Positions 1 to 25,474 are shown, counted from the stretch's first letter. The stretch: DNA of 60,124 bases from a virus (IMGVR_UViG_3300029448_000032:1-60124); one strand, 5' to 3'. Notes: a model not told the origin generated them from the sequence alone. Program-made: numbers and translations.

Positions 1-100
1 CTTATGGAAGAACTAATTACTAAAATTAGAACATCTGATGGTAGAAGAGGCGAGAAAAAAGATGGTGGTTGGAATTATGCTACAAATGTGAAACCACAAC
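1..100. repeat. Terminal direct repeat, copy 1 (circular assembly overlap)
   Basis: 1-100 equals 60025-60124 with one mismatch (position 2); lies inside a reading frame. Confidence 0.95.
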
Positions 101-609
101 TTGCTGCAGAACACGCAGTCACATGGGCTCGAGAAAATAATATAGATCTAAGTAGGCTTGGTGATATAGTTAACATGGCTATGTTGGATATGATAAGTCA
201 ATCAGACAATGAAAGAGCTGATGGTATGAAACCTGAGTATATAGAAGGATACTTAAATAGCGCTATCATTAAACAAGCAGGTGGTGAACCTGGGTTATTT
301 CAAGTTGATCCAGGTAATCCAGCAGCTGGTGGGGTTAATGCAAAAGAGTTCGCTCACATGAAGAGAAACATTGGCCACTTATTACTACGATCAGGACAAT
401 CCGATTCACTTACTGACATAAGTAATTATATTAATACTTATGCAGAACTTTGGAATGGAACTGCTCAATATGAAGGTAAGCCTCATCCAGAGAATTTAAG
501 TGATGCTGATAGAAAGAAATGGGAAGGCAAGAAGCTTAAAGATACTACGCCATTCTTTGAATGGTTACAAAATGAAATTGCTTTAGATCAAAAAGAATTT
601 ATGAAGTAG
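4..609 (+). CDS. C-terminal 201 aa of the ~1164-aa lytic-transglycosylase ejection protein starting at 57139
   Basis: ATG at 4 corresponds to in-frame ATG 60028 (60028-57139 = 963 codons). Confidence 0.85.
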   Translation: MEELITKIRTSDGRRGEKKDGGWNYATNVKPQLAAEHAVTWARENNIDLSRLGDIVNMAMLDMISQSDNERADGMKPEYIEGYLNSAIIKQAGGEPGLFQVDPGNPAAGGVNAKEFAHMKRNIGHLLLRSGQSDSLTDISNYINTYAELWNGTAQYEGKPHPENLSDADRKKWEGKKLKDTTPFFEWLQNEIALDQKEFMK

Positions 610-617: not shown

Positions 618-3600
618 ATGGAAAGAATGTCTTTATCAGAAAGATTAGCTCCTGTAGTTTCTAATACTGATCTAAATGAAGAGTTTAGATTTTTAGATGC
701 AGATACTGTAGAGTCTAAGGTAGACTTTGACGATCAAGGTAGACCATTAAGATTCCGACTTCAAGGAATAGATGCTCCTGAGGTTGCCAAGTATTTTGGT
801 GTAGATAATATTAAAGCTAGTACTTCTGGATCTAATAAAGCTAACTTAGCATTAATGAACTTAGCTAAGAAAGAAGGCTTTACTAACGTTATAAGGTCAG
901 GTAGATTTGATGCATTAGGTCGAGAGATAATTGACTTACAAGACGAAGCTGGTAGAAGTTGGGAAAATACTTTAATAAAAACTGGTGTCTTAGATCCAAC
1001 AAGATACACATCTAATGAAGCAATAAAAGCTAATATAGTAGCTGAAGCTATAGGTACTCATGGACAGGGAGAAGATTGGGACGTAGCTAGGAATGCTATT
1101 GCAGATGCTATATACGATGAAACTAAATACGAGACTATGATAAAGCAACAAGCTATAGACGAAACTGAGTTAGCTTATGGTGGTAATTACTTTATGCCTG
1201 GATCTGTAAAATACAGAAGTTTCGATAGAGATCTACGTAATAAAGCTACTAGTCCTTTTGCTACGGCTTGGGATGTAGGCTTAACAGGCGCTATTGAAGG
1301 TTTGTATGGTGCTGTTGAAATGACTGGCGAAACTACTGGATGGGACTGGGCTAAGAACGTAGGTGAGAATGGTATATATAGAGCTAGAAGAGAGATCGCA
1401 AGAAAACCTGAGATCGTAACTAGCTATAAAGACATAGATGGATTCTTCGGAAGAGATGGATTTCTACAATATGTAGCTAACAACGCAGCCATCTCCTTAC
1501 CTTACATGGCAACTACTATGGCAGGAACATTAGCAGCTCCTTTTACTTATGGTACTTCTTTACTTGCTCCTGTTTCTTTATATTCAGGTACTGTATGGAA
1601 TGATATGGAAGGAGATAATAAGAACGCGCCACTAGCTATTGTAACGGGTGTAGCTCAAACTGCACTAGATAGACTTGGCTTAGGGTTCTTAGCTAAAGGT
1701 ACGTTGTTATCTAAAGAAGGACGACAGACAGCAGTTAATGCTTTAATAAATAAAGCTAGAACAGAAGGAGTTAAGGTAAGTGGTATCACAGTAATACCTC
1801 GTGGTACAGAGTTATCTAAAGAAGCTGCTTCGAATTTGATATTAACATATAGTCGTCAAGAGACAGCTAAGCTAGCTACTGACGCAGCTAAGTTTGCTAA
1901 AGACCAGTTAAGAATGCGGAACGTAGTTAAGTCACAATTAAAGAGACTTGCGGTTGGTGGAACAGGTGAAGGTATAACTGAAGCACTTCAAGAATCTATT
2001 GGATATACTGCAGCTCACCATGCTAATGGATTTAGAGATTGGAATGCTCACGAGTTTAAAGATCGTCTTATTGATGCTACTATTGCAGGTACTTCTCTTG
2101 GTGGTGCCTTCTCCGTACCTGGAGGAGTTTACGACTACGGTGCTTGGACAGATGTAGCTTATAGAACTGGTACTAATACAGGTAAACAGACATCTAAGAT
2201 GGGTAAGCTAGCTGAAAGAGACATAGCTAAGAACGGACAGCAATATAATATTCAAGAAGAAAACGATACAAACAAATTTGAAACTGAGAGACAATCTGGT
2301 GATCCATTCTTTGATAGTAACGAAGATATAAATGACCAAGCAGAAAGACATGAAAAGAAATTAAAACAAAGAGATATGGCTCAAATAATTCGTGACTCAT
2401 TTACAAACTTTCCTAGATTGTATCGTGGAATTATGAGATCTGCATTCGGTAATATGGGATTTGCTGATGAGCTTCAAAATAATTCTACAACAGCTCGTAT
2501 AATGGCTGAAAAGTATGGTGGTAACTTACAAAGATCTGTTTCAGGTGAGTCATACGAAAATAGAAAGCACCATGAGATATCTAAGATACGTCATATACTA
2601 GGAGATGTATCTAATATACTTGCTGGGTTTGGAAGATCAGATAAAAGAAAAGCTCGTATTAAGTTTAGTCAAGAGTTTTATGAAGCTTTTAATAGAGCTC
2701 ATGAAAAAGCTGCAGCTGAAGGAAGAGAAGTTAATTGGGAAACAGATTTAGAAGGACCACTAAGTGAGAATATTCCTGCGTTTATAGCACTTGTAGGTAA
2801 GTTAAATGAAGTAGGAAATAGAATGCATAACATGCAGTCTAAACATAATCCTCAATTAGGAAAGATTAAAGATTATTTAGCTAGACATAGATCTATAAAT
2901 AAAGAAGCTGTTGAAAAGAATAGAGCGGGATTTGAGAATGCTTTATTAAATCTTAAAGATAGTAGAGGTAGACCGTTAGTTACACCAGAGCAAGCTTCAG
3001 AATTAACAGAAGCTATTATAAGGCAAGATGGAGTTAACGATATTTCTGATCTTACAGCAGGTAAAGATGGATTCTCTGTTGTATCTAAAGCTACATTTAA
3101 ACCTCAATCCCATAGGAAAAGAACTTTAAATCTATCTGATAATCCTGAGTTTAACGAATTCTTAGAAATGGATTTATTTTCTAATATATCTAACGCAGCT
3201 AAGTCTGCTGTACGATACACAGTACTAGAAGAGTTTGTTGGTGCTGATAATAAGAAAATTAATAATGATCTTGCTAAAGTTAAAGAAGAATTAATGGGCT
3301 CAGGCTGGAGTGAGGCTGATGCACAAAGCAGAGTAGACAAACTATCTTATGATATGAAAAGGTTTCTTAATGCTGAGTCAGGAAACTACAAGCGTATTCA
3401 AAATCCAATATGGTTATTTGCTCAAAAGAATTTATTATTTGTAACTACTATTACTGGATTACCATTAGCTACACTATCTAATTTTGTTGAACTCGCCTTA
3501 GTTAGTAAGAGTTTAAATGTAAGTCAGATCGTTGGGAAAGATGGTAGTATAGCTAGTATATCTAGAAACTTTGTAAATGAATTAAACAATACTGCTAGAA

Positions 3601-4715
3601 GAGGATTCGGTGCTGCCACAGGTAAAGTGACCCCTCATAGAAGAACATCTGCTGGATACCAGAAAATACAAGAATTAGGTTTCTTAGATTGGGAAGTAGG
3701 TGCAGCTCATACAACAGGCGTTAGTGAAACTGGTCGTATGCACCAACGTGTTTTAGATTTATACTTTAAAACTATTCTATTACAGCAATGGACTAATGCT
3801 ACTCGTGCATCAAGAGCTGCTATCGCAGGAGACTATATAGTAGATAAAATAAATATATTAATTGAAGCACAAATGCATGGAATAGTAGAAGCTGGAACTG
3901 ACTTTAATAGAAAGGCTACTTATACTAATGAAGTTGCAGAAGCTGAAGAAGCATTACGTAATTTAGGTATAGATCCTAGATGGATGGTAGACTATCATAT
4001 GGGATTTCCAGATATGGGTAGGGCTAGTGATCCAAGTTTAAATGTTAGTGATCTTGGTCGACCTAGCAGAGAACCTACTGAGATAGAAACAGAAAAATAT
4101 ACACGAATGATGAATGATGCTACGTTTAGTTTTGTTAATGAGGCTGTCGCTTTGCCTCAATCTGGAAACAGACCTTTGATCTTTCAAGATCCTAGGTTCG
4201 CTTTGTTTACTCAGTTCCAAGGTTTCATAGCTACATTCCAAGCAAACCATTTGCCTAAGATGTGGGCAGAAATGGCAAGACGTGGTACTCCTGCAATGAA
4301 GTATAATGTTTTTGCTACTATGTCTACTATGATTTTATTAGGGTTTGTATCACAACATCTTAAAGACTTATTAAAGTATGGAGAACCAACTCCTTATTTT
4401 AAAGATATGGAATACGTTAGAAGAGGTGTTGCATCCAGTGGATTATTAGGTACATCAGAAAGAGTTTTAGACTTTGTTTTCCCTATGTACCAAGAGAGAT
4501 ACAAAACAAATATTGGTTGGGCATTTGGAACTATATCAGGAGAATCTGCTGCATTAAGTAAAGCTCTTAGAATAGGAGAGTTAGGAGTAGATGTAGCTCA
4601 AGGAGAAAGAGGACTGGGAAGTGCTGCTATGAAGATCTCTCCTTTAGCACAAGCAGCTTATCAAGCACAGAAAAATATACCTCGATGGAATTTTGGAGAT
4701 AACACATGGCAATAA
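618..4715 (+). CDS. Large internal virion (ejection) protein with N-terminal staphylococcal-nuclease-like domain
   Basis: LDADTV, RLQGIDAPE and DALGR motifs in the first ~130 aa; no Cys seen; lies between the SLT protein and the vRNAP. Confidence 0.75.
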   Translation: MERMSLSERLAPVVSNTDLNEEFRFLDADTVESKVDFDDQGRPLRFRLQGIDAPEVAKYFGVDNIKASTSGSNKANLALMNLAKKEGFTNVIRSGRFDALGREIIDLQDEAGRSWENTLIKTGVLDPTRYTSNEAIKANIVAEAIGTHGQGEDWDVARNAIADAIYDETKYETMIKQQAIDETELAYGGNYFMPGSVKYRSFDRDLRNKATSPFATAWDVGLTGAIEGLYGAVEMTGETTGWDWAKNVGENGIYRARREIARKPEIVTSYKDIDGFFGRDGFLQYVANNAAISLPYMATTMAGTLAAPFTYGTSLLAPVSLYSGTVWNDMEGDNKNAPLAIVTGVAQTALDRLGLGFLAKGTLLSKEGRQTAVNALINKARTEGVKVSGITVIPRGTELSKEAASNLILTYSRQETAKLATDAAKFAKDQLRMRNVVKSQLKRLAVGGTGEGITEALQESIGYTAAHHANGFRDWNAHEFKDRLIDATIAGTSLGGAFSVPGGVYDYGAWTDVAYRTGTNTGKQTSKMGKLAERDIAKNGQQYNIQEENDTNKFETERQSGDPFFDSNEDINDQAERHEKKLKQRDMAQIIRDSFTNFPRLYRGIMRSAFGNMGFADELQNNSTTARIMAEKYGGNLQRSVSGESYENRKHHEISKIRHILGDVSNILAGFGRSDKRKARIKFSQEFYEAFNRAHEKAAAEGREVNWETDLEGPLSENIPAFIALVGKLNEVGNRMHNMQSKHNPQLGKIKDYLARHRSINKEAVEKNRAGFENALLNLKDSRGRPLVTPEQASELTEAIIRQDGVNDISDLTAGKDGFSVVSKATFKPQSHRKRTLNLSDNPEFNEFLEMDLFSNISNAAKSAVRYTVLEEFVGADNKKINNDLAKVKEELMGSGWSEADAQSRVDKLSYDMKRFLNAESGNYKRIQNPIWLFAQKNLLFVTTITGLPLATLSNFVELALVSKSLNVSQIVGKDGSIASISRNFVNELNNTARRGFGAATGKVTPHRRTSAGYQKIQELGFLDWEVGAAHTTGVSETGRMHQRVLDLYFKTILLQQWTNATRASRAAIAGDYIVDKINILIEAQMHGIVEAGTDFNRKATYTNEVAEAEEALRNLGIDPRWMVDYHMGFPDMGRASDPSLNVSDLGRPSREPTEIETEKYTRMMNDATFSFVNEAVALPQSGNRPLIFQDPRFALFTQFQGFIATFQANHLPKMWAEMARRGTPAMKYNVFATMSTMILLGFVSQHLKDLLKYGEPTPYFKDMEYVRRGVASSGLLGTSERVLDFVFPMYQERYKTNIGWAFGTISGESAALSKALRIGELGVDVAQGERGLGSAAMKISPLAQAAYQAQKNIPRWNFGDNTWQ

Positions 4716-7700
4716 GAGTAAACCCACAAGGAGCTTTAACAGAAGATACTAGAGCTAAGGTTGCTGAGAATGTAAAGCGCATGACAATGGCTGAAAGGTT
4801 TAAAGCAAAACCTTTACTAAAAACTCCAGTCGATCAGTTGAATGTAACAGGAGATCGTCCGTATCTTACAGCTGTAGATGATTACAAAGTAAATAAGTTT
4901 ACACCATCTGCTAACACAAGTCCTTACGCAAGTACTACAGTAACACGAAGCAGACGTGAGAGACTAGATAAAGAAAGAGAAGATGATATTAACGCAAAGC
5001 GTTATGAAGAAGATTTGCTTGCACAAAAACAGCTTGACCGAGAAGAAGCTCTTTCTGAAAGAGAACCTAAAATTCGAGCTATATGGAATCAAGGAGTCCA
5101 GCAAGATGAGGTAGGAAAAAGATTAACTACAGCAGAAGCAGATCAATTACGTCTTAGTACAGGTGTATCTGAAAGTGTAGTAGGAATAGGAGATGATGCT
5201 ACTGGACATATGATTAGAAGGGCTAATCGCTTTGTTAATCTAGCTCACGATACAAAATTAAACTTTACATCAGATGATTATGCTCGTAATATAAGAGCCG
5301 ATCAATCTACAATTTCTGATGAAACTTGGGCTAGACAATCAGCAGCTGCTAGAAAAACAGGTCAGACACTTACTGCTGCAGGGTTTCAACTTAATGATAT
5401 TATGAAAGACCCAACCGGTAGATTGAGTGAAGCTCAAATAGAAAACATAGCTCAGTTCGCAGCAGGCCCTAATGAAAAGTCAAGACCTAGAATTGGAGGT
5501 ATGTATATTCCTAAGCAAACCCGTGGTGTTAACTTAGGTAATGTGTATGAAGAAACTTCTTTAAGAAGAGGTGTGCAACAAGCTGAAGGTAGTCTTCCAC
5601 TAGTAAGCGATCCTAGAAATGAAGGTCAATATAGAGAAGCTACTTTTTTAGATCAGTATAACAAAGAGATAATATCTAGAACAGGTTCAGATAAAAATGT
5701 TATAGATCCATTAAGTGTTAAAGGTATTATGTTTAATCCTGACGGATTTGATGCTGGAGTATTTGATAGAGAAGGGAACATGGTAGTTGATCCAACAGCT
5801 TTAACTACTATGGCTTTAGCTACTGAGATCTTCCTTAATAAAGCACAGTATCAAAAAGATACTACTCCTATAGAAGGTGATGCAGTTCTAGAGAAAGAGT
5901 CTGTTAAAGATAAAGCCTTAAGAGAAGCACAAGATACTACTTTTTCACCAGAAGGTGGAATCGGAAGAGTTGAAGGTAATGCAGAGTTAGGAAGAGAAAT
6001 CTTTAAATCTTGGAAGCGTGAACAAAACTTAATGAACAATAGACCTAGTGACCAATATAATATAGACGCACTTAGTAACAATGAATTCGTAGCTTTAGGA
6101 ACTCTAGCTAAAGAGATGTATCATATGGCTAACCCACATTTACTAACAAGGATAAGTAATGAGGGAGGTTTTGATGCTGACGCAATAGGAGATCACGTTA
6201 ACTCTTCAGTTGAATTCAGGTTAACCGATCTAGGTAAAAAGGTTTTTCTTGAAACTCAGAAGTCATCTCCAGATGCTTTCAGAAATTATGAAATAAAAGC
6301 TAGACATAGCAAGAAATCTAGAGCTCTTCAAGATACAAGAACAGAGAAGGATGTTTATTTAAAATCAGCAACAACTGTTATTAAACCTGAAGTACATGAA
6401 GCTATAGAAGAAGCTCGCTTTAATATGGGTAATGTAGGTCATGTAATTGACCCGCTTAGACGTAAAATAGTTACGCAGCTTGCGATCACTGCACTGGCTG
6501 AAATGAAGAAACCCGGCGCGATTCCTAAGGTCGGTGACTTTTTTGATGTTGGCCAAGTAAAACTTGATGCCTTTAATGCAGAACTTAACAACAAAAGAAG
6601 AAGTCGTAATTATGTAGAGGGTGAGTATCGTCCTGAATATGAATTAGAGAAGCAGCTTACTAAACTAATAGAAATGCTTAATACTGTAGGAGTAAATAGT
6701 AATAAAGTTAATTACTTAGATTTTGTGTTACAAAGTCTTACTCATAGAATGCATGCAGGTCAAACAAGATTTAATCCACAATTAATTCCTTTGTTAAGGT
6801 ATATTACAGGTGGTGCAGTTCCTACTGCTGTTAATACTGCTGGTACTTCTGATGCTAACCTTATGTTTAAAGAGTTAATGGCTATTCATTTTCTTAAAGA
6901 AGATGCTGACGGTAAAAAGAGTAAATTCGATTTGCCTGAAACTAGAGTAAAGAACTTCGATGCAGAATGGGCAAAACCCAATCATGGTAGATTAGGACCT
7001 TATATCTCAGCTGGTAATGCTATTAGACAAAGCTTACTAAATAATGAGCAAGATGCTAAGTACACTGAAGCATTATCTAATATAAGATTAGAAGAAATAA
7101 AGAGTGATCCTTTAGGACAAGAGCAAAGTCTTAGTGATTTAGCTATTCAAGGAGGATTTGAACCTGTACCAGAATCTACTAGTCCTCTTAGTAAAAAAGC
7201 TCAAGGAATTGTTATACCCCCTGAATTACTTGATGTTCCTGGTTTAAATATGGGAGATGGTTTACTTAATGAAGCTAGTAAGGAAGGTATTGAAGGGCTT
7301 CATTTAGTTGAGGCAGCTCATGAGTTAGCTATGTGGGCTGAAGCTCGGAAGTCTAATGATCCAGCAAAGCAAACATTTAATTCTAATATAGGAGTAGAGT
7401 TTGACGGACTAACACATGGACCTGCTTCTTGGGTTGCAACATTAGGATCTATTGTAGCTGGATATAGAACAGGTATGTTTAGAAAACCTGGTGCTACTCA
7501 AAAATTAGATGAGTTCAATAGACAGAACATGTTAGATGTGTGGCTTGAACACCAGCCAGACGAGTATGTTGAAGCAGATCCTTCTCCTGACCAAGTAGCT
7601 GGAGATTTTAGAAATGCAATGGGCGTTTGGATGCTGTCTGAAGGGGAGAAGTATGCTAATCGTGTTAATCCTAGACATGCTGCAGAGTTATACGAGATAT

Positions 7701-9232
7701 TAGGAGAAGCTATTAAAGATAAGGAGTATTTTCTTAAGAAACCTCCTATGACTTTATCATATGGCCAAATGCTAGAGAATTTAACTGATTCTATAGGACA
7801 AGCAGTTATGGGTTCTTCTAGAATAAGAGAAATCATGAACAATAAAGATTTCAGAGAGTCTATTATTACTAGACAGCTGATAGCGCGGGGAAAAGATCCT
7901 TCTTCTATTGAGAAGTTAAGCCCTAAAGAGCGTAAAGAAATAGTTGGTAATGGTGTTATAGATTTTCTTCATAATATATTAGCAGATGCTATTGACTCTC
8001 AAATTCATCCAGGAATAACTGAAGTAGGCCAACTTATTAGAGCTAACGCTATGGTCTCTATAATGAGCGATGAGCTTATGACCATTGAAAGTGCGTTAGG
8101 TCTTCCAAATTATATAGGAGCTAAAGAAAGTCTTCAACAAACATATCAAGCTCCGCTTACAGGTACAGTACCTGGAAATAAAAGTATCGGAGATATATAC
8201 TTATTTAAGACTCAACCTTCTGGTAGTGCAATAAGAACAATCGAAACTCCAGGTGGGATTAAACAAATAGTAGGTGGATACACTTCAGGAAGAAGTATTC
8301 CAGCTATCATACAAGCTATTGATGGAGCTTGGATGAATAGGATGTTTACAGATTCTTTTAAAGGACCAAATGGATTACAAGATGCTTATATGGTACCTAT
8401 CTTTGATGCTGTTAAAACAGATTTAACAAGTGCTAGAAGAGTTAGAGAACATGCTAATCATAATTGGTGGAATGTTATAAAAGAGTATAATTACTTTGAT
8501 AGTCTTATGCAAGATTGGCAACCAAAAGCAAGTGAAAGGTTTACGAAACATCTTACAGATATCGGTGATACACCTATATCAAGCACTAATGGGTACGGAT
8601 TAACAGACGTAGCTGCATTTAATAGTAAAAAGCCTACAAGAAAGATACTTCAAGCGGGTAATCGCTATAAAGCTTTTCATGATTTCTTTACAGTAACTAG
8701 AGAAGACAGTAAATATTCTCAGGGCAATATGCTTAAAGAAGGAGATTTAAGTTTAGAAAATCTTATATCTGCATTTAAAACTTCAGGATTATTTCCTGCT
8801 CGTAAGAAAGGGCAAACAGTTAAGGCTTATAAAAAGCAAGTAAACGATGCAGCTACAGAACAAGCGAAGATGTTATTTCCTGAGATAGCACAATTTCATA
8901 TAGAGCAAAAACAGATTTTGAGTAATGTTAGGGAAGGAAGTATGACTGGGTTTCAAGGTAGAACTTGGGAAGAATACTATGCATTTTTAAATGAACATTC
9001 TACTAATGAACTCGGTGATAGACTAAGAGAGCTTAGAAGAATATATCAAATGGATCCTACTGGTAATGAGTTAAACTCCATATACCAAACAATAATAGGA
9101 AAATATGGTTTAGATTTAAAAGCTAGAAATGATAGTGTTACTAAGCAATATAGAAAAGCCCATGAAAACATGTTTAAGTTTGCTAAGAAATTGGCTAATG
9201 ATATTAGACTTCTTCAAATAGACATGGGATAA
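4706..9232 (+). CDS. Virion-encapsidated single-subunit RNA polymerase (mini N4-vRNAP-like)
   Basis: THRM..FNPQ, motif A VEFDGLTHG, motif B KKPPMTLSYG, PAIIQAIDG, motif C VPIFDA; no Cys seen; last gene of the ejection cluster. Confidence 0.85.
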   Translation: MAIRVNPQGALTEDTRAKVAENVKRMTMAERFKAKPLLKTPVDQLNVTGDRPYLTAVDDYKVNKFTPSANTSPYASTTVTRSRRERLDKEREDDINAKRYEEDLLAQKQLDREEALSEREPKIRAIWNQGVQQDEVGKRLTTAEADQLRLSTGVSESVVGIGDDATGHMIRRANRFVNLAHDTKLNFTSDDYARNIRADQSTISDETWARQSAAARKTGQTLTAAGFQLNDIMKDPTGRLSEAQIENIAQFAAGPNEKSRPRIGGMYIPKQTRGVNLGNVYEETSLRRGVQQAEGSLPLVSDPRNEGQYREATFLDQYNKEIISRTGSDKNVIDPLSVKGIMFNPDGFDAGVFDREGNMVVDPTALTTMALATEIFLNKAQYQKDTTPIEGDAVLEKESVKDKALREAQDTTFSPEGGIGRVEGNAELGREIFKSWKREQNLMNNRPSDQYNIDALSNNEFVALGTLAKEMYHMANPHLLTRISNEGGFDADAIGDHVNSSVEFRLTDLGKKVFLETQKSSPDAFRNYEIKARHSKKSRALQDTRTEKDVYLKSATTVIKPEVHEAIEEARFNMGNVGHVIDPLRRKIVTQLAITALAEMKKPGAIPKVGDFFDVGQVKLDAFNAELNNKRRSRNYVEGEYRPEYELEKQLTKLIEMLNTVGVNSNKVNYLDFVLQSLTHRMHAGQTRFNPQLIPLLRYITGGAVPTAVNTAGTSDANLMFKELMAIHFLKEDADGKKSKFDLPETRVKNFDAEWAKPNHGRLGPYISAGNAIRQSLLNNEQDAKYTEALSNIRLEEIKSDPLGQEQSLSDLAIQGGFEPVPESTSPLSKKAQGIVIPPELLDVPGLNMGDGLLNEASKEGIEGLHLVEAAHELAMWAEARKSNDPAKQTFNSNIGVEFDGLTHGPASWVATLGSIVAGYRTGMFRKPGATQKLDEFNRQNMLDVWLEHQPDEYVEADPSPDQVAGDFRNAMGVWMLSEGEKYANRVNPRHAAELYEILGEAIKDKEYFLKKPPMTLSYGQMLENLTDSIGQAVMGSSRIREIMNNKDFRESIITRQLIARGKDPSSIEKLSPKERKEIVGNGVIDFLHNILADAIDSQIHPGITEVGQLIRANAMVSIMSDELMTIESALGLPNYIGAKESLQQTYQAPLTGTVPGNKSIGDIYLFKTQPSGSAIRTIETPGGIKQIVGGYTSGRSIPAIIQAIDGAWMNRMFTDSFKGPNGLQDAYMVPIFDAVKTDLTSARRVREHANHNWWNVIKEYNYFDSLMQDWQPKASERFTKHLTDIGDTPISSTNGYGLTDVAAFNSKKPTRKILQAGNRYKAFHDFFTVTREDSKYSQGNMLKEGDLSLENLISAFKTSGLFPARKKGQTVKAYKKQVNDAATEQAKMLFPEIAQFHIEQKQILSNVREGSMTGFQGRTWEEYYAFLNEHSTNELGDRLRELRRIYQMDPTGNELNSIYQTIIGKYGLDLKARNDSVTKQYRKAHENMFKFAKKLANDIRLLQIDMG

Positions 9233-9280
9233 AAAAAATAAGGGATACCAAGGCGCAAGCCAAGGTATCCCTTTTTTTAT
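9231..9280. terminator. Bidirectional intrinsic terminator between the converging arms
   Basis: A-run, AGGGATACC-aa-GGC-GCAA-GCC-aa-GGTATCCCT, T-run. Confidence 0.85.
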
Positions 9281-9466
9281 TTAACCACATATCTCAGGAG
9301 CATATAGATGTTCAAGATTATGTTTCTTTACATAGTTCTTTATCCAGTATTGAGGAAAGTGGAATTCAGTTTCATCTAAGAATACTATTCCATATTTATA
9401 TATAAAGGCTATATCTTTATGATCTATACCGATTACTCCATCGGGTTTTATTTTAATAACACTCAT
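9281..9466 (-). CDS. Hypothetical protein
   Basis: ORF with GGAG RBS. Confidence 0.6.
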   Translation of the reverse strand: MSVIKIKPDGVIGIDHKDIAFIYKYGIVFLDETEFHFPQYWIKNYVKKHNLEHLYAPEICG

Positions 9467-9476
9467 CTTCTACTCC

Positions 9477-11837
9477 TTACGAAAAGAAATAATCGCTATC
9501 AGCGATTTCTTTTACGTTTAGATTTCCTAGCTTGTAGTTATAACTAAACTTTTCAGGTTCCATTAATAACATATCGGCTATATGTTGATAGTAATCGCCA
9601 TGATCGTACATTTTAATGAACACTTCTTTAGTTAAGTCTAATAAGCTAGCTACATCACAACCGTGAGTAGAAAATGAGTCATGTATTGCAGCGAAGTCAC
9701 CGTCCCAATGGTGTATAATTAACGCCATATGAGCTGCATCCATACTGTGAATAAAGTTTGGGCTTATGCCCGAAGCAAAGCCGCCAGGGCTTGCTATCTT
9801 TTTGCCGTATACAAGGCGGTGTTCCTTACCGACATGCTGGATTCTCATATCCGATATCCAGCTTTTCCATTTGATATCTTCCATTACGTAATTTTCATAT
9901 CGTACTGGAAATCCAGATGGAGTAGTCCACTCAATAACAGGCTCATTCAAGTCTGCTATAATGTGGTTTGCTATTGCTTGTAGATAACTCATAGTTTCTA
10001 ACGGACCGGGACAAACTTCATCTATCGCTTTAATTAGATTAAAAGATAGATCATTACAGTCTGACATAGATATATTATACTTACTATGGAATCCTTCAGC
10101 GTAGCAATCAGCGTACATATTTAATGCTATGGCTAAATGACCTGCGCTATAAGCTCTAGTCATAGACCCACGTTTAGAGATACCTTTACGGATATGTTTC
10201 ATAGGCATATCACGAGACTCAAACCACTCAGGCATACGAGCTATTAAAGCTTTAGCCGTTTGTACATAGAAGTCTTTAGGTATTTCTGTTTGAACTAGAC
10301 CTACAAGCTTACCAGCTTCTTTGTCTTTAGATATAGCAGCCAAGTGTTGCCACCCATTATTAGATCCATCAATAGGAATAGGAAGGTTTATATAGTAATC
10401 ATTCTCAGGAGATTGATCCCATAAAGTACACCATGCTTTACAACAAGCAAGAAAGCTAACAGGCTTCTCTGCTTTATCATGGATAGTACGGTTGATCCAA
10501 GTATTTCTGATAAAGTCTTCGTTATTAGAAACCCATTTAACTCTATCATCAATAGTCATCTTATCAACTGAGATGTCTGTCAACCTTTCATTTTCCAAGT
10601 GACTCTTATAATCAGCATCACACCACTCAGGTATGTTATCAATAGTATACGATTGATTATATGTACAGGCTGTATGTACTGCAAAGTAATACAAGCCTTC
10701 ATCAGTCATCGGTTTAGCACTTGCGAATTTAAGTAGACCACGTTCCATGTCTTTACCTTGATAGTTCAAGTAAGACTCTCTGTAATATAGTCTACCACGA
10801 TAATCTGTATCTACATATTGGAAAAAGATTTTATTCTCTAATGCTTCAGCTTTCTGAACAGTCATATTGTAAGCATCAAACTTACTACGGTTCTTTAATA
10901 ATACTAGCTTAGCATTCCAATTAGTAGCAGCGTTATCATATTTCTTTTGAGCTCTGACTAATGGCTTCTTGTCAGGTTTATTACGTAGTTTATTAGTTAA
11001 TCTTCTTAACTCTCCGTAATACCTTTTCTCTAAAGATTTATTACCTAAATCTGGTTTAAATACCACATCATTCCAGTATAAATCTTTTCCTTCCAACTCT
11101 TTGTTGTTACCAAATATACAATAGCGGTAGTTCTTACCGGTCTCATCTGATACTTTAAGAGTTTCAGTTACAAACTTACGTTTGTTTTTCTTAACCGCTT
11201 CTAAGATATCACTATCAATAGTCCAAGCTGTTTGCTGCAATTTGTTTATCGCATCTACAAATGGTTCATCTAATAACTCTTTAAATGATTCGGCTTTATC
11301 GAAACCCCAATGCTTTATTACTGGGTAACCATTCTCTTGGAATAGATTATGAATACGGTTTATCTTCGTAAACGAAGTGTTCTGTATTAACTCGTTTACT
11401 ACGTCACTGGGAAGTGATCCAATTTGTAACCACTTTTCAGAGGTCTCTATCATATATGGAGCTCTACTGAAAGGCTTTTTACCTATAGGATTAGCTTCCC
11501 ATTTTATTTGAGCTTCAGTTGGAGCTCTAAATATTTTTATATATCCACATTCATAGAACGCTTCAAGAACTAGGTCGCCGACTGTTACGTCAGCTCTAAA
11601 CCCTAGCTCTACTCCCTTCTGAAGCAACACATTCTTACCTATAGCAACCGAAGCTGCTGTAAGTTTACATGTTGCTGACTCAGAAGTTGAAGTCTTTGTG
11701 AAGTGGTATTGCAGTATAGTTAATGCGTCATATACTAACCGCTTCGGATCCAGCTTGTGTTCGTTCACCAGCTTTACTGCCCACCTCTGCGGTGTATTTA
11801 TAATTTTCTGTTCTAAATACTCTATTATGTTCTGCAT
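9477..11837 (-). CDS. T7-like single-subunit RNA polymerase (~786 aa)
   Basis: DYRGRLY, PIDGSNNGWQH, KRGSMTRAY, SPNFIHSMDA, AIHDSF, C-terminal YFFS; start placed at MQNII (11837) after AGGAG RBS. Confidence 0.95.
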   Translation of the reverse strand: MQNIIEYLEQKIINTPQRWAVKLVNEHKLDPKRLVYDALTILQYHFTKTSTSESATCKLTAASVAIGKNVLLQKGVELGFRADVTVGDLVLEAFYECGYIKIFRAPTEAQIKWEANPIGKKPFSRAPYMIETSEKWLQIGSLPSDVVNELIQNTSFTKINRIHNLFQENGYPVIKHWGFDKAESFKELLDEPFVDAINKLQQTAWTIDSDILEAVKKNKRKFVTETLKVSDETGKNYRYCIFGNNKELEGKDLYWNDVVFKPDLGNKSLEKRYYGELRRLTNKLRNKPDKKPLVRAQKKYDNAATNWNAKLVLLKNRSKFDAYNMTVQKAEALENKIFFQYVDTDYRGRLYYRESYLNYQGKDMERGLLKFASAKPMTDEGLYYFAVHTACTYNQSYTIDNIPEWCDADYKSHLENERLTDISVDKMTIDDRVKWVSNNEDFIRNTWINRTIHDKAEKPVSFLACCKAWCTLWDQSPENDYYINLPIPIDGSNNGWQHLAAISKDKEAGKLVGLVQTEIPKDFYVQTAKALIARMPEWFESRDMPMKHIRKGISKRGSMTRAYSAGHLAIALNMYADCYAEGFHSKYNISMSDCNDLSFNLIKAIDEVCPGPLETMSYLQAIANHIIADLNEPVIEWTTPSGFPVRYENYVMEDIKWKSWISDMRIQHVGKEHRLVYGKKIASPGGFASGISPNFIHSMDAAHMALIIHHWDGDFAAIHDSFSTHGCDVASLLDLTKEVFIKMYDHGDYYQHIADMLLMEPEKFSYNYKLGNLNVKEIADSDYFFS

Positions 11838-12186
11838 TATTTCTCCTAGTTTTGCGGAACGGATTATGTGTAACGTTAAACAGGTCACACCCATTCCTTA
11901 AGCAACATTTTATTTCATGAGATTCTACTACAGTAGCTTCTTTATCTGTCATCTGTCCACCTTTAATCACAACAACATCTTGTATTTTGTGGACAGACAA
12001 CTTATCAAGCAACCAAATATGGTGGTCATAACCACGGTTAGTTATCTGGTATGCTCTATGTAAAGTACCCTTACCAACGTATACTACGTTATCCGTTTCC
12101 GGATCTTTATGAAAGTAAACACAGTACATATCTTCAGGATACTTTACAACTTCATGGGTATCTTCTCTAATCTCTATCTGACGCAA
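11728..12186 (-). CDS. GIY-YIG-like nuclease
   Basis: YCVYFH...VVYVGKG..RA pattern; 3' end overlaps the RNAP gene. Confidence 0.55.
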   Translation of the reverse strand: MRQIEIREDTHEVVKYPEDMYCVYFHKDPETDNVVYVGKGTLHRAYQITNRGYDHHIWLLDKLSVHKIQDVVVIKGGQMTDKEATVVESHEIKCCLRNGCDLFNVTHNPFRKTRRNNAEHNRVFRTENYKYTAEVGSKAGERTQAGSEAVSI

Positions 12187-15375: not shown

Positions 15376-15728
15376 TGATAGTATATCTCCGGTTTATCGT
15401 TGTTTTTAAGATGTACTATGTCAGCGTTATACAAAGGCTTTTTAGTTTCTTTATTAACAAATGTAGAATGTTTATAAGGATTATAAGTCGCCTGCTTGGT
15501 CATACTAAAATAGTCTTCACTGTTCTGTATATTAGATAGTGTACCTCTAACAAAGGCATGGACATTCTTTTTACGTTCAGTTAAAACTTTAGCACGACCA
15601 GCAGGTTGAACTACAAACTCAGCATCTTTTATAAACACATCATCGCTATGTAGTATAACTATACCTTTATATCTTACTGAGAATATCTTCTTATGTAAGT
15701 TATAGTATACGTCTACCTTAGACATCAA
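15372..15728 (-). CDS. Conserved phage hypothetical protein
   Basis: VYYNLHKK...KKNVHAFVRG...YNPYK pattern, recalled from marine phages. Confidence 0.7.
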   Translation of the reverse strand: MMSKVDVYYNLHKKIFSVRYKGIVILHSDDVFIKDAEFVVQPAGRAKVLTERKKNVHAFVRGTLSNIQNSEDYFSMTKQATYNPYKHSTFVNKETKKPLYNADIVHLKNNDKPEIYYQ

Positions 15729-17606: not shown

Positions 17607-17633
17607 GTTGAAAAAGCGCGATGAATATCGCGC
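17607..17633 (-). promoter_or_regulatory. Hairpin element (GC stem), candidate vRNAP promoter
   Basis: gttgaaaaa-gcgcg-atgaatat-cgcgc just upstream of polA. Confidence 0.65.
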
Positions 17634-17646
17634 TTTATTAGGGATC

Positions 17647-17844: not shown

Positions 17845-18301
17845 TAGAATGATGTAGTATAATGTGAGTATCTCCTACGTTATCAGCATGGTTAGGTCCA
17901 ACCCATCCCTCTGGTTTAATCATATCAGGTAAACCTAATGGATTAGGTCTTGAAGGTTTCTTTCCAGGTTCTTTACTCATGTTAGCTTTATGAACCCTTG
18001 ACCAAGCTTTATTAGCGTCAACACCTAGAATATCTAACGTACCTATTGCTACCACACATAAATCTATAAGACCATCAACAACTTCTTGTGCGTTCTTATC
18101 TAACACGGCTGCAGCTTTAGTCTCGTTAAGTTCTTCTTCTAAGAATTTAATACGAAAATTTAAGAATTCTCTTAAAGTATTGTAGTCTTCTTCATCTATC
18201 TTACGAGCCATCCACTTATGCACACCAAATTTCTGATGCATTGCATGAATGTCTTCTGCCCACGAAGATCGTTTGCCATAAACTCCAGGATATTTCATCA
18301 C
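17816..18301 (-). CDS. MazG/PRA-PH-like NTP pyrophosphohydrolase (candidate dCTPase)
   Basis: EEELNE...DGLIDL...NMSK; adjacent to the dCMP hydroxymethylase. Confidence 0.8.
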   Translation of the reverse strand: MMKYPGVYGKRSSWAEDIHAMHQKFGVHKWMARKIDEEDYNTLREFLNFRIKFLEEELNETKAAAVLDKNAQEVVDGLIDLCVVAIGTLDILGVDANKAWSRVHKANMSKEPGKKPSRPNPLGLPDMIKPEGWVGPNHADNVGDTHIILHHSNDGGYENYE

Positions 18302-18359
18302 ACACTCTCCTTTATGTCGGTAATGTCGGTTAAGTTAAATAAAATTTTAAAGGTACTAC

Positions 18360-19106
18360 TCATCCAGACCTCATAGGTACTACATAGTCTTTAGGTTTAA
18401 TACATTCTTCTATTAAATGAAAATGTCTAGGATATACATGAAGGTTCTGAACCTGCCACGTAATATGCCCTGCTTCAAGACCGAGATCTATCGCAAGACG
18501 GTTAATTACTTTAACTTGCCAAGCATAATCATTAATGTACCCAAATACCGCATCGTTTGAGCGCATCTGAACTACACCATAGAGCGCTGTTCCTCTTTTA
18601 TAGTATGTTACAGCATTTGTACAGACAAAGTCATTCTTACCATGCTCTATGGCCGTCTGATGCATGTCTGGGTTTGTGTATATCATAGTAGCTCTTCGAG
18701 AATTAGGACGTAGCTTTAATTCTTGGACTACATTATTATATTGGCTGCCATTCTCTTTACTATAGATTAAGTATCCATAGTTAGAGTTAATGTCACCATC
18801 AGTATTAGCGGTTACATCCTTCCATATAGCAGGAACCTTACCGTAAATATCTCCTAAATCATTTACGTTTAGACTTTGAGAATCATACCACTCTAATTCA
18901 GCTTCAATGTACTTAACATTTCTTTCTCCGAATATAGTCGGTTCATCAGCAAGGAAGCTGGCAGCTCTTATCTCGAGCGTACCATCTTCCTGAAAGTCTT
19001 GGTTCTTATACAGTTGAATGAATTCTTTTTTGATTTCACCCGACAGCATTAGCTTCCTTTCTTCTATGTTTAAAATAGTGGTCAACCATTTGTTGGTCAC
19101 ATACAA
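18360..19106 (-). CDS. dCMP hydroxymethylase (T4 gp42-like, ThyA fold)
   Basis: ASFLADEP, ELEWY, INSNYG, SRRA.MIYT, DFVCTN, MRSNDAVFGYINDYAWQ, LHVYPRHF closely follow T4 gp42; true start may be MLSGE (~19049). Confidence 0.88.
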   Translation of the reverse strand: MYVTNKWLTTILNIEERKLMLSGEIKKEFIQLYKNQDFQEDGTLEIRAASFLADEPTIFGERNVKYIEAELEWYDSQSLNVNDLGDIYGKVPAIWKDVTANTDGDINSNYGYLIYSKENGSQYNNVVQELKLRPNSRRATMIYTNPDMHQTAIEHGKNDFVCTNAVTYYKRGTALYGVVQMRSNDAVFGYINDYAWQVKVINRLAIDLGLEAGHITWQVQNLHVYPRHFHLIEECIKPKDYVVPMRSG

Positions 19107-19453: not shown

Positions 19454-19921
19454 TTAAGATGGTATAGCTGAAGTTACTCCACTATGAGGGAATATCTCAC
19501 ACTCATGGCAGAACGGTTCTTCTAAAGTATTATCGTTAGGATCATCGTAAGATAACGAGTCTTGCCCACATATAGGACATAGACCACTATTAGGATTCTT
19601 ACGTTCTAACCATACGATACAACGACTCGCGTAGTTTATTAGATCTATTAAGCAGTCTTCAGCAGAATCAAAGTTAACATCACCATCTTGTTCCATTACA
19701 GACCGGAATCTTAAAATCTTGGTAGACATCATAGTGTCAAATGACTTCCATCCATGAGGATAATAGTCTTCATCACATACTGAGCCACCTTGATAGTCTT
19801 TATTCTTCTTACTCATAAGATCTATACATCGGCTAAGAACTTTCTTTGAGTCTTCTAAGTAAGATTCAGTACTCATAACTCTGAAGTCTAGATTATTATT
19901 GTTTCTTAAGTTTAATGACAA
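19454..19921 (-). CDS. Nucleotide-modification-associated domain (Nmad1/DUF1599-like) with C-terminal Zn finger
   Basis: KKNKDY...K..R...EDCLIDLINY; CPIC...CHEC. Confidence 0.7.
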   Translation of the reverse strand: MSLNLRNNNNLDFRVMSTESYLEDSKKVLSRCIDLMSKKNKDYQGGSVCDEDYYPHGWKSFDTMMSTKILRFRSVMEQDGDVNFDSAEDCLIDLINYASRCIVWLERKNPNSGLCPICGQDSLSYDDPNDNTLEEPFCHECEIFPHSGVTSAIPS

Positions 19922-19942: not shown

Positions 19943-19969
19943 GTTTAAAAAGCGCGATGAATATCGCGC
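19943..19969 (-). promoter_or_regulatory. Hairpin element (GC stem), candidate vRNAP promoter
   Basis: gtttaaaaa-gcgcg-atgaatat-cgcgc upstream of 19921. Confidence 0.65.
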
Positions 19970-19987: not shown

Positions 19988-20842
19988 TTATGCTGCCAAT
20001 AAACTTTGAAATTGAGGAGAACTAGTCCATTTAGTTACCTCTTTTTCTCGGTTCCACATTGACACAGCTTGAGTATCGTTACCTGTGTTACGTAGTTTAA
20101 AACCATTACGCTTATCAGCATAACTAGCGTAGTTAGTGAATGCACTGTAGATAGAGTAAACGTTTTCTCCACGAGTAGATACTTCTTGGTTGTACAAAGA
20201 TACCATCTTCTCAGCTTGTTTTTCATTCATAATTTTCTTGAATAAATCTTCAACATCTGTATAAGCCGTTGATATTCTTGCCCAATTTTGTAGCATGTCG
20301 GCTTGCTCATAAAAATCGTTAGAAGATCTTTCAAGTTGAGTAGCGAAAGCTGCGATGCTAAAGCCTGAAGTGTTCTTACGTTTAACAATATCGTGCTCAC
20401 CTCTTATCATCTTGTTGGTGCAAAAGAAAGAGATCTGTCCATACACTACAGTGTTAGAGCATAAACCGTCTATTCCGTGTAAACCTATAATACGCTGACC
20501 GATTTTCTCTGAATGCTTGTCGGTAAAGATATCAAAACTTACGTTAGGTAACGTGATATCCATCATCATGAATCCCCCGTTACGAGCAGTACTCCATTTA
20601 ATATGGCAGTCTTGCAGCTCATTGTCGGTTAGTTTATCTTTCATAGTATTCCAAACTGTATGAGCAAAATTACTATGGTTAGTAGCTGTGAAGTCGTTAC
20701 CTACTACATTTAGGTACTGACCTGTGTCTTCTCGATATACATATTTCTTGCCATCGATTTTTGTCGGTTCATACCCTATATCAAAGCTTATATCATCGGG
20801 CACACTGAACTGATCTGTCCTTGTTGTAACATAATCTAACAT
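19988..20842 (-). CDS. DUF932-like protein
   Basis: REDTGQYLNVVG, HGIDG, FFCTNKMI, YSIYSAFTNYAS pattern. Confidence 0.7.
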   Translation of the reverse strand: MLDYVTTRTDQFSVPDDISFDIGYEPTKIDGKKYVYREDTGQYLNVVGNDFTATNHSNFAHTVWNTMKDKLTDNELQDCHIKWSTARNGGFMMMDITLPNVSFDIFTDKHSEKIGQRIIGLHGIDGLCSNTVVYGQISFFCTNKMIRGEHDIVKRKNTSGFSIAAFATQLERSSNDFYEQADMLQNWARISTAYTDVEDLFKKIMNEKQAEKMVSLYNQEVSTRGENVYSIYSAFTNYASYADKRNGFKLRNTGNDTQAVSMWNREKEVTKWTSSPQFQSLLAA

Positions 20843-20868
20843 TGTTATTCCTTCATTTGTTTCTAAGT

Positions 20869-21050
20869 GTGTAGGGAGGATTTGGGTTCACCTCCAACTA
20901 GTTCGACCGAGATACCATTCTCTAACCTACTAGAACTTGTTCCCACTCGGGAGAGTGATGTGATTCTTACTCGCTAGAGCTTGAACCTGGCTACCACGCC
21001 TGAACAATCAAGTTACGCCTCTTGGTAAGACGCGTTTCCTTGCACTACAC
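20869..21050 (-). ncRNA. Structured ncRNA, manA-RNA-motif-like
   Basis: Intergenic; terminal stem GUGUAG/CUACAC, stems CGCGUCUU/AAGAGGCG and GGAGG/CCUCC, long-range GGUUC/GAACC and CCGAG/CUCGG; family name is from recall. Confidence 0.65.
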
Positions 21051-21129
21051 TATTTGACCCGTCGGTCAAAACGGTTTATACGAGAAAGCCGTAAGACGTT
21101 TTGCGCCACATATTTTTCTCGTATTCTTT

Positions 21130-21230: not shown

Positions 21231-21551
21231 TTAACTTCTTTCGTGTACGTATACATCGAAATGAGTTGCCTTATCTAAGGGAAGATAGCAATCATAAGCT
21301 CTTGGGTGTCTTCCTTCTACCCTTGCCCATGCAGTACGCTGTCCTCGACCCATAAATCTAACTCTATGTTTAGTACTTGAATCTTTATTCATTAATTTCA
21401 CAGCTTGTTTCAAAGTTTTCACTGCTTCATCATCTCTATTTGTAACTGTAAATTTATATCCGCTTAATGGAGATCTCTCTTTGGTCCATCTTGCTAATGC
21501 TTGGCTTGATCTTTTCATATTGTTTCCTTTTCTTTGAAGTTTTGCATCCAC
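21231..21551 (-). CDS. Hypothetical protein
   Basis: ORF; likely start MKRSS (21518). Confidence 0.65.
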   Translation of the reverse strand: MDAKLQRKGNNMKRSSQALARWTKERSPLSGYKFTVTNRDDEAVKTLKQAVKLMNKDSSTKHRVRFMGRGQRTAWARVEGRHPRAYDCYLPLDKATHFDVYVHERS

Positions 21552-22846: not shown

Positions 22847-23338
22847 TTAGAATGGCAATTGTTTCTCTTCAGCAGGTTTAGTTTCTGTTGATTCGACAAC
22901 ATCGAAACCAGCTGTTGGAGTATATTCAACTAATTCTACGACTTGAACCGCAGTTAGTGAAGTAGCTATGCCGCTACGTCCTGGAGCTTCATAAGCGTAT
23001 TGCCAAAGATTTACGTTTACCTTTGAGCCGTTGCCAATGTTGTCACCAGTAATTGGAGTTAGTTTAGCGTCAACGATTTTAACTGGAGCATTTGGGTTTC
23101 CATCGGCTTTAATGCCTTTACGCTTTAAGTTCACAGAGAAAAGCTTTTCGTCTTCTTTGTCTTGTTTGACAGTAAGACCATGATCTTTAAGCTCTTGAAC
23201 TTTTGCAGGATCACTAGTTTGAATCATCATTTCCCACTGTTTAGATCCAAATGGATTAACAGGAGCATCTGATCCAGAGATTCGGCAGAATTTAGCAGTT
23301 AAATCTTTAACAATTATTGAACGAGGATAATCACTCAT
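22847..23338 (-). CDS. Single-stranded DNA-binding protein (T7 gp2.5-like)
   Basis: IGNGS.V.V, L.AVQVVELVEY, acidic tail ending LPF. Confidence 0.85.
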   Translation of the reverse strand: MSDYPRSIIVKDLTAKFCRISGSDAPVNPFGSKQWEMMIQTSDPAKVQELKDHGLTVKQDKEDEKLFSVNLKRKGIKADGNPNAPVKIVDAKLTPITGDNIGNGSKVNVNLWQYAYEAPGRSGIATSLTAVQVVELVEYTPTAGFDVVESTETKPAEEKQLPF

Positions 23339-23382: not shown

Positions 23383-23409
23383 GTTTAAAAAGCGCGATGA
23401 ATATCGCGC
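23383..23409 (-). promoter_or_regulatory. Hairpin element (GC stem), candidate vRNAP promoter
   Basis: gtttaaaaa-gcgcg-atgaatat-cgcgc upstream of the SSB gene. Confidence 0.65.
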
Positions 23410-24847: not shown

Positions 24848-24875
24848 GTTTTAAAAATTTTATGGATATAAAATT
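24848..24875 (-). promoter_or_regulatory. Hairpin element (AT stem), candidate vRNAP promoter
   Basis: gttttaaaa-atttt-atggatat-aaaat upstream of the NADAR gene. Confidence 0.65.
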
Positions 24876-25446: not shown

Positions 25447-25474
25447 GTTTTAAAAATTTTATGAATATAAAATT
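25447..25474 (-). promoter_or_regulatory. Hairpin element (AT stem), candidate vRNAP promoter
   Basis: gttttaaaa-atttt-atgaatat-aaaat. Confidence 0.65.

Follow-up and report, generated by a model that had tools for sequence, protein, structure and literature searches.

We analyzed a marine phage DNA stretch of 60,124 bases – IMG/VR record IMGVR_UViG_3300029448_000032, called the window below, at its full length – that encodes two single-subunit RNA polymerases (RNAPs) on opposite strands, tail to tail. One, encoded by the open reading frame (ORF) 4706-9232 on a plus-strand late arm, resembles the virion RNA polymerase (vRNAP) of phage N4. The other, encoded on a minus-strand replication arm, is a T7-like RNAP, here called RNAP2. 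We consider it probable that the phage runs an N4-like early and T7-like late transcription program with these two enzymes of its own. The window contains the fold and motifs of the polymerases, two classes of promoter-like site at separate positions and a gene layout that is conserved among relatives; from these we infer which enzyme uses which sites, and when. The genes and the terminator at the junction are as follows.

4706-9232, plus strand: vRNAP-like gene (protein P0001, 1508 amino acids), last gene of the plus arm
9233-9280, no strand assigned: bidirectional intrinsic terminator (A-run, hairpin 9240-9273, T-run)
9281-9466, minus strand: small ORF of 61 amino acids between the RNAP2 gene and the terminator; no Pfam family
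9477-11837, minus strand: T7-like RNAP (RNAP2), a single polypeptide; last long gene of the replication arm

Residues 1 to ~330 of the vRNAP-like protein are variable, and residues ~320-1508 make up a complete single-subunit RNAP. Two AlphaFold models were made, one of residues 560-1508 from 22 sequences (predicted local distance difference test score, pLDDT, 79.4) and one of residues 320-1508 from 40 sequences (pLDDT 80.3). The modeled domain has a right-hand polymerase fold and matches solved single-subunit RNAPs over most of its length. The top Foldseek match was the N4 mini-vRNAP crystal structure (2po4, E 1.9e-10), the best 40 rows were all T7, N4 or mitochondrial RNAPs, and 73 matches reached E <= 0.001. 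In 40 family sequences, with identities down to 19%, residues R681, D900, G901, K1011, M1015, Y1019, G1020 and D1234 are invariant, which argues for a working active site; D900, K1011, Y1019, G1020 and D1234 are invariant also in sets of 22 and 14 sequences. Motif A falls at D900-G901, motif B at K1011, M1015, Y1019 and G1020, and motif C at D1234, and an FNPQ sequence follows the R681 stretch; some of the pairings of these residues with N4 or T7 residue numbers are presumed. When the family was aligned to N4 mini-vRNAP with hhalign, VEFDGLTHGP fell on VEADGVTNGP and KKPPMTLSYG on KNPLTITIYG, with motifs A and B in register.

From the model and the alignments, we conclude that ORF 4706-9232 encodes a complete single-subunit RNAP with intact catalytic motifs that is probably active. 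The enzyme is nearer in build to N4's than to T7's and lies outside every curated sequence family; it is probably a compact, very divergent homologue of N4 vRNAP. An earlier reading of the sequence (the first-pass annotation) had named this plus-arm ORF a vRNAP, and both its N4/T7-type single-subunit fold and its intact catalytic motifs agree with that name.

The protein belongs to a large family. A word-seeded search returned 21 relatives, of which none (0/21) had a Pfam domain, and a profile search of 1.84 billion representatives returned 276 members at E <= 0.001, counted as representatives at 50% identity. Among the best 150 of these 276, full-length members have ~1,080-1,680 amino acids with the polymerase at the C-terminus, and none is N4-sized. 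The Pfam PF00940 model did not match the vRNAP-like protein, phrog_2166 did not match ORF 4706-9232, and a tblastn search of 50,697 phage records with the protein returned nothing. The ESM Atlas gave weak leads only, with scores of 0.83-0.84; two among the rows listed are PF00940 clusters.

RNAP2 belongs to a well-described group. It matches Pfam PF00940 (E 3.8e-54) and phrog_414 (E 1.5e-101), and its translation holds the stretches DGSNNGWQH, RKGISKRGSMTRAYSAG and HDSF, corresponding to motifs A, B and C; its N-terminal domain had no Pfam match. The enzyme is encoded by one ORF of 786-805 amino acids and is unsplit, unlike N4 gp15 + gp16. The frame is open over 9477-11894 on the minus strand, and Met20, at 11837, is the better start because AGGAG lies 6 nt upstream of it; this bears out the start position given in the first-pass annotation. 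A separate minus-strand ORF of 152 amino acids with a TTG start (11728-12186) fills the gap upstream of RNAP2 (11838-12186) and shares the first 110 nt of that gene in a different frame. Its product looks, by eye, like a small GIY-YIG-type protein, and it had no Pfam match at E <= 0.01.

The terminator between the two polymerase genes folds as RNA with -19.3 kcal/mol on the plus strand and -20.0 on the minus strand, and as DNA with -15.1 (z -6.2). Of 17 genomes examined, 11 have an A-run/hairpin/T-run terminator after the vRNAP-like stop codon. The tail-to-tail layout itself, with a T7-like RNAP gene on the opposite strand just downstream of the vRNAP-like gene, occurs in 22/22 close loci and in 24/24 loci that a distant family member retrieved; the T7-like RNAPs of these latter loci are 43-51% identical to that of the window. 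The arrangement described in the first-pass annotation is therefore kept in related contigs. Its details fared well too: the vRNAP-like gene does end the plus arm and is followed by the terminator, and the arms do meet at this one bidirectional element, whose hairpin (9240-9273) folds on both strands. The RNAP2 gene had been placed at the end of the minus arm; it is the last long gene there, with the 61-amino-acid ORF between it and the terminator.

The genome has these two arms. CheckV rates the record complete, and its ends overlap, bases 3-100 being identical to 60027-60124. The overlap implies a genome of ~60,024 bp that is circularly permuted or terminally redundant, and it makes the plus arm continuous from 26598 through 60124/1 to 9232. 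It is exact from base 3 only; base 2 is T versus G (window 1-2 versus 60025-60026), probably an assembly end effect. The minus arm, from 26132 to 9281, carries small early ORFs and genes for a gp2.5-like single-stranded DNA-binding protein (SSB), thymidylate synthase, MazG, DNA polymerase, an exonuclease, a primase/helicase, dCMP deaminase and the T7-like RNAP. The plus arm, from 26598 through the record end to 9232, carries genes for terminase, portal, scaffold, major capsid protein, fibres, ribonucleotide reductase (RNR), a 1418-amino-acid structural protein and three giant proteins.

We observed a family of hairpins on the replication arm. A search for stems of at least 6 bp around the loop AT[TC]C gave eight matches in the window; 100 mononucleotide shuffles gave a mean of 0.41 and a maximum of 2. 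Six of the eight lie on the minus strand, in intergenic DNA on the minus arm, and all six share the top AT[ATYC]AT. The remaining two are on the plus strand, inside ORFs, and lack this top. The six hairpins (loops as read on the minus strand) are as follows.

26191-26212, minus strand: hairpin 1, A/T stem, loop ATCC; 58 nt upstream of the first minus-arm gene
25454-25475, minus strand: hairpin 2, A/T stem, loop ATTC; before gene 24944-25393
24856-24875, minus strand: hairpin 3, A/T stem, loop ATCC; before gene 24427-24819
23392-23409, minus strand: hairpin 4, G/C stem, loop ATTC; before the gp2.5-like SSB gene 22847-23338
19952-19969, minus strand: hairpin 5, G/C stem, loop ATTC; before gene 19454-19921
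17613-17636, minus strand: hairpin 6, G/C stem, loop ATTC; 28 nt from the start of the DNA polymerase gene and the last hairpin upstream of RNAP2

Read on the minus strand, the six follow one scheme, in which five free stem bases and AT lead into the loop AT(T/C)C, and AT, the five pairing bases, TTTTT and A-rich sequence come after it. They stand in sense orientation 28-60 nt upstream of start codons, and the first one heads the arm. Five of the seven stem pairs vary on both sides with all 42 cells paired, and the top two pairs and the loop are fixed; the lower stems are G/C in three hairpins and A/T in three. An inverted repeat is also found before the DNA polymerase gene in 11/11 relatives that reach this site (two with an internal mismatch, judged by eye).

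N4 vRNAP has been described as reading the conserved loop and upper-stem bases of its promoters, with pairing as the sole need at the remaining stem positions; an A-run of the template strand is described as setting the transcription start (PMC4496689). Run on phage N4, our hairpin script recovers its three early promoters, which precede gp1, gp2 and gp15 and have the fixed top GC[T(T/C)C]GC and free lower stems; they are followed by T-rich sequence and lie 29-64 nt before the genes. The template-strand loop is GRA in N4 and GRAT in the window. The hairpins of the window are thus built like N4 vRNAP promoters, with loop and upper stem fixed and the lower stem free.

Comparison with relatives suggests that the hairpins change with the vRNAP-like allele and not with the T7-like RNAP. 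The window and locus L004 are 97.4% identical in DNA over 9.2 kb of the replication arm, and their RNAP2 proteins are 99% identical; their vRNAP-like proteins are 46% identical. The hairpin before the DNA polymerase gene has the same lower stem in both, and its top is AT[ATTC]AT in the window versus CC[ATAAA]GG in L004. One indel aside, which gives L004 an additional small ORF, the 60-nt bin that holds this hairpin and the adjoining bin at the end of an ORF are the most divergent between the two, with 11 differences in 60-62 positions each. Similarly, L007 and L010 compared with L017 have RNAP2 proteins that are 98-99% identical, vRNAP-like proteins that are 45% identical and different hairpin tops. 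Where vRNAP-like proteins are closer to one another (66-75% identity among L006, L007 and L010), one hairpin top is common to all three. Complete relatives have hairpin families of their own, on the replication arm only and in sense orientation: six hairpins with the loop AYAAR in G001, and four of the form ATG[ARAA]CAT in G002, where two further loose matches were taken as chance. We regard this co-variation, seen in a small sample of related sequences, as good circumstantial evidence and not as proof; it points to the vRNAP-like enzyme as the likely user of the hairpins.

Two more distant complete genomes of 57-59 kb (G006 and G007; L056-L061) also have hairpin families of their own at the head of the replication arm, TGTTT[CAT]AAACA and ATCCC[TTC]GGGAT, and on a quick look their own repeated T7-style motifs on both arms. 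L004 carries an extra small ORF, hydrophobic by eye, at ~15493-15711 (corresponding to window 18300-18420), between the MazG and thymidylate synthase genes.

The second class of site is a T7-style duplex element of 16 nt, TGTCTCCTATTAGAGA, with four sites at no more than 2 mismatches in the window and a fifth at 3 mismatches; 1.19 sites are expected by chance at up to 3 mismatches. The four sites are as follows.

26396-26411, plus strand: head of the late arm, upstream of the terminase gene; G001 and G002 have syntenic copies
29575-29590, plus strand: on the plus arm; 2 mismatches
47970-47985, plus strand: before the RNR gene; the nearest site upstream of the three giant genes that include the vRNAP-like gene
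25632-25647, minus strand: on the minus arm, downstream of the first gene and of a terminator; a G-rich leader comes next; syntenic in G001 and G002

G001 and G002 each have four copies of this 16-mer, in synteny and with the window's 3:1 split between strands: before the terminase block, before a block of small ORFs, before the RNR gene and, on the replication arm, after the first early gene. The more distant relative G004 has a one-base variant of it. Since these sites are conserved together with the T7-like RNAP, the 16-mer may well serve as the promoter of this enzyme. The G-rich leader after the minus-arm site (25480-25631, minus strand) is ~150 nt long, has no ORF and extends to the next hairpin; it may represent a structured leader or a small RNA. 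A G-rich leader occupies the corresponding place in G001 and G002, with little in common beyond the sequence TATACCT.

Both classes of site are distributed as the first-pass annotation had proposed. It held that the hairpins serve the minus arm only, and all six with the shared top (6/6) lie there in sense orientation, the two plus-strand matches lacking that top; it assigned three of four T7-style sites to the plus arm, and these are 26396, 29575 and 47970, with 25632 on the minus strand. The nearest promoter-like site upstream of the vRNAP-like gene is the T7-style site at 47970, and that upstream of the RNAP2 gene is the hairpin at 17613. Between 47970 and 9232, ~21 kb on one strand, we found no plus-strand hairpin of -15 kcal/mol or stronger with a T-run, and between 17613 and the RNAP2 gene no strong terminator was found. 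Our own terminator scan was too permissive, and we used only its matches at about -17 kcal/mol or better; a terminator consensus scan missed the main terminator. With no strong terminator on either path, each enzyme could transcribe the gene of the other. This reciprocity, also proposed in the first-pass annotation, stands in part: the hairpins are N4-like and track the vRNAP-like allele, and the T7-style sites are conserved with RNAP2, while one of them, at 25632, is oriented along the minus arm, and the T7-like RNAP therefore probably serves its own arm as well.

These observations can be assembled into a candidate program. The vRNAP-like protein would be made late, as the last product of an ejection-type cassette of three genes, and would be packaged and then injected together with the DNA. 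Once inside the cell, it would use as promoters the six DNA hairpins of the replication arm, which have the invariant top AT[ATYC]AT, a free lower stem and a T-run after it. The resulting transcripts would cover the early genes and those for SSB, DNA polymerase and primase, and would reach RNAP2 by read-through from 17613. The T7-like RNAP would then use the 16-nt duplex promoter at its four sites, three driving the late arm, including the vRNAP-like gene at the far end, and one re-entering the replication arm. Transcription of both arms would end at the single bidirectional terminator.

Whether the vRNAP-like protein enters the virion bears on the first step of this program. It is encoded by the third and last of the giant late genes, directly before the terminator; the two genes that precede it are as follows.

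57139-60124, plus strand: start of giant late gene 1, which runs over the record end into 1-609; SLT transglycosylase domain
1-609, plus strand: C-terminal part of giant late gene 1, a 5'-open ORF at the end overlap of the record
618-4715, plus strand: giant late gene 2, 1365 amino acids, virion structural or ejection-type; phrog_6958 'virion structural protein', E 7.5e-25

Giant gene 1 matches Pfam PF01464 (SLT) at residues 201-299, with 25.9 bits against a cut-off of 21.3, and its PHROG matches are lytic tail protein and endolysin; by analogy, the SLT domain is like that of ejection or internal virion proteins. Giant gene 2 is homologous to gp34 of Roseobacter phage CRP-7 (BLASTP 5e-25). In N4, gp50 is described as part of a three-gene ejection operon, and vRNAP is called an ejection protein (PMC13434306). 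By its position, the vRNAP-like gene would likewise belong to an ejection-type cassette at the end of the late operon, and packaging of its product in the virion and injection are plausible. Among 17 genomes – the window and 16 of 22 related loci, after exclusion of the near-duplicates L003 and L011 and of four loci with partial matches – pairwise identity is 74-100% for the T7-like RNAP and 31-75% for the vRNAP-like protein, except for two near-identical pairs at 96% and 100%. These alignments indicate that the vRNAP-like protein evolves far faster than the neighboring T7-like RNAP. Its place in the cassette, its very fast divergence and the naming of N4 vRNAP as an ejection protein (PMC13434306) would also suit a protein of ejection or structure that has kept a polymerase fold, as a DNA-pulling motor or in an inactive form, with early transcription left to something else. 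We consider this very improbable: none of the 40 sequences departs from the two catalytic aspartates, the lysine and tyrosine of motif B or the arginine that precedes FNPQ, and a DNA-pulling motor of such a kind would also transcribe.

Several results weigh against the N4-like early and T7-like late program or parts of it. The vRNAP-like protein had no family match in Pfam (E <= 0.01), PHROGs or NCBIfam, and no PDB match by phmmer or by a 22-sequence profile. Its hhalign match to N4 mini-vRNAP is weak (probability 11.5%, E 0.0026), and a 140-sequence profile left N4 gp50 as a whole unscored, with a best stretch of 8.9 bits. The bidirectional terminator is absent in 6 of the 17 relatives, and the T7-style site at 25632 on the minus arm means that reciprocity is not exclusive. 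Metatranscriptomes, available as contigs from three seawater runs of one study, gave short contigs of low depth with no transcript starts. As to co-variation, the stem changes within the window amount to two classes and are therefore close to a single event; the change of hairpin between the window and L004 is confined to a patch of ~180 nt and could thus be a recombination tract; and the hairpins of G001 split into two sub-types, ACAAG (four) and ATAAA (two). Finally, each of the six window hairpins is followed by T5, and the three with G/C stems resemble intrinsic terminators and lie between genes, so these three could also terminate.

This last point raises the alternative that the hairpins are intrinsic terminators, attenuators or stem-loops for RNA processing or stability, and that their likeness to N4 is coincidental. 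TTTTT after all six, the terminator-like scores of the three G/C hairpins and their location between genes are what such elements would show. The three A/T-only stems fold weakly as DNA (-4.1 to -5.1 kcal/mol), and one hairpin precedes the arm's first gene, a position that offers nothing to terminate. At the site before the DNA polymerase gene, a T-run of at least 4 directly after the stem is found in 1 of 12 genomes, the window itself. The other terminators of the window all differ in sequence, and a fixed loop and top pairs with variable lower stems are needless in a terminator. We therefore judge this alternative improbable and retain the reading of the hairpins as candidate promoters of the vRNAP-like enzyme.

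A more serious alternative, though still an unlikely one, concerns the start of infection. Host RNAP may begin transcription from unrecognised promoters, as in T7/phiKMV-type phages, with the T7-like RNAP following later and the vRNAP-like enzyme acting as a late polymerase that is not packaged. That enzyme might then act on the hairpins as the DNA replicates, either priming replication or raising the level of replication-arm transcripts late in infection. Host promoters may be present, the vRNAP-like gene is expressed from the late arm, and the replication arm bears a T7-style site, all of which would fit a host-driven start. Four observations weigh against this alternative. The first hairpin heads the minus arm, with no other conserved promoter-like element before its first gene; the vRNAP-like gene lies within an ejection-type cassette, as in N4; and its fast divergence, against a conserved T7-like RNAP, is more in keeping with a protein of the virion, or an ejected one, than with a replication enzyme in a housekeeping role. 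The fourth is that sigma-70-like sites are at chance level (48 found versus 49.5 expected), a count that by itself neither supports nor excludes host promoters.

With two phage-encoded enzymes, host RNAP may be dispensable, which we rate as slightly less likely than not. More tentatively still, we suggest that widespread marine phages of ~58-60 kb might carry out their entire transcription without host RNAP, through two single-subunit enzymes that make each other's mRNA. The injected enzyme and its hairpins would form a fast-evolving matched pair, exchanged or re-tuned between near-identical genomes, and the late enzyme and its duplex promoter would stay fixed.

A close parallel to the early half of this program is N4 (Schitoviridae), whose polymerase fold matches the vRNAP-like model and whose motifs A and B align with it. 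N4 gp50 is likewise the last gene of a leftward late block, convergent with the other arm; the early promoter hairpins of N4 share the fixed loop and top, the free lower stem and the T-rich sequence after it; and one N4 vRNAP promoter lies directly before the RNAPII genes. The two systems differ in size, N4 gp50 having 3,500 amino acids with N- and C-terminal domains around the polymerase and the window protein 1508 with the polymerase C-terminal. N4 RNAPII is split between gp15 and gp16 and encoded in the early region, whereas RNAP2 of the window is one full-length T7-like polypeptide with a duplex promoter, encoded at the far end of the replication arm. The late arm of the window has T7-style sites, whereas N4 late genes use host RNAP; the order described for N4 is vRNAP, then split RNAPII, then host RNAP with N4 SSB for late genes (PMC4496689).

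The late half of the program resembles T7/phiKMV-like phages (Autographiviridae), with which the window shares the PF00940 RNAP, a short conserved promoter repeated through the genome, a strong terminator after the major capsid gene and an internal protein with an SLT domain. In phiKMV-type phages the RNAP gene lies at the end of the DNA-metabolism genes, and T7-type phages use host RNAP for early genes. Unlike these phages, the window has 60 kb, two divergent arms, a second, N4-type polymerase and hairpin elements.

The closest cultured phage is Roseobacter phage CRP-7 (MK613349), whose gp30 is the best match of RNAP2 (32% identity over 98% of its length, residues 16-805 aligned). CRP-7 has the same two arms, with three giant genes tail to tail with the T7-like RNAP gene, after two small ORFs. 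The product of its last giant gene, gp33, was negative by BLASTP against the vRNAP-like protein and its family, reached a probability of 0.2-0.3% by hhalign, and gave a weak 16.4-bit HMMER match to a 140-sequence hidden Markov model that aligned the YG and IHDA motifs; gp33 is thus not clearly related to the vRNAP-like protein. No repeated hairpin family and no repeated 13-mer were found in the first 50 kb of CRP-7. The CRP-7 report names ORF30 alone as an RNA polymerase, and its authors describe CRP-7-type phages, to which those studied here are related, as widespread in marine viromes (PMC6918029).

The jumbo phage phiKZ is independent of host RNAP. Phages of the phiKZ/AR9 type follow the same logic as the program proposed here, with an injected early polymerase and a second phage polymerase for late genes, including those of the injected one (for AR9, see PMC5312081). 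Their polymerases are multisubunit two-barrel enzymes and their genomes exceed 200 kb, whereas both enzymes of the window would be single-subunit and right-hand, in a 60-kb podovirus-type genome. A literature search by titles and abstracts found no description of a compact N4-type polymerase paired with a T7-like RNAP.

If the program is correct, injected hairpin-reading single-subunit RNAPs are not confined to the Schitoviridae and to a protein of 3,500 amino acids, and a compact form exists in a large unannotated family with 276 representatives at 50% identity. It would be the first all-single-subunit phage program, possibly independent of host RNAP, and its early enzyme the smallest natural hairpin-reading RNAP, with ~1,190 residues of fold. 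The natural vRNAP-like alleles, each with matching hairpin tops, would form a series of specificity variants and a direct route to the rules of promoter reading, and could supply orthogonal single-subunit polymerases that start on single-stranded hairpin templates.

Other features of the window were noted along the way. No tRNA genes were found in the window, and a search for related loci with protein P0034 found none. Two different thymidylate-synthase-type genes are present, one per arm (18360-19106, minus strand, and 28796-29584, plus strand; phrog_160 and phrog_85). A manA RNA motif (Rfam RF01745) lies at 20865-21069 on the minus strand, scoring 71 bits against a gathering score of 55.2 (E 4.4e-16), within the 388 nt that separate ORFs 19988-20842 and 21231-21551. 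The first gene of the minus arm (25752-26132, minus strand) is of low complexity, with GTAGAAG-type repeats on the plus strand, and unrelated metatranscriptome contigs pile up on it to very high depth; a low-complexity repeat accounts for the depth at 25676-26342, from which we drew no conclusion.

On the plus strand, an ORF at 40007-41263 that adjoins the tail-fibre genes has many tandem repeats of 21/63 nt, which encode Ala/Thr/Ser-rich units. A strong hairpin with a T-run (38484-38512, -19.4 kcal/mol) lies directly 3' of the major capsid gene; T7 likewise has a terminator after its capsid gene. The stretch 26230-26330 (plus strand), which lies between the first replication-arm hairpin and the plus-arm head, holds two tandem 29-nt repeats (TTG..AGAGAGAGATAGTGAGG) and a purine-rich run; it might serve as an origin, in packaging or in regulation.

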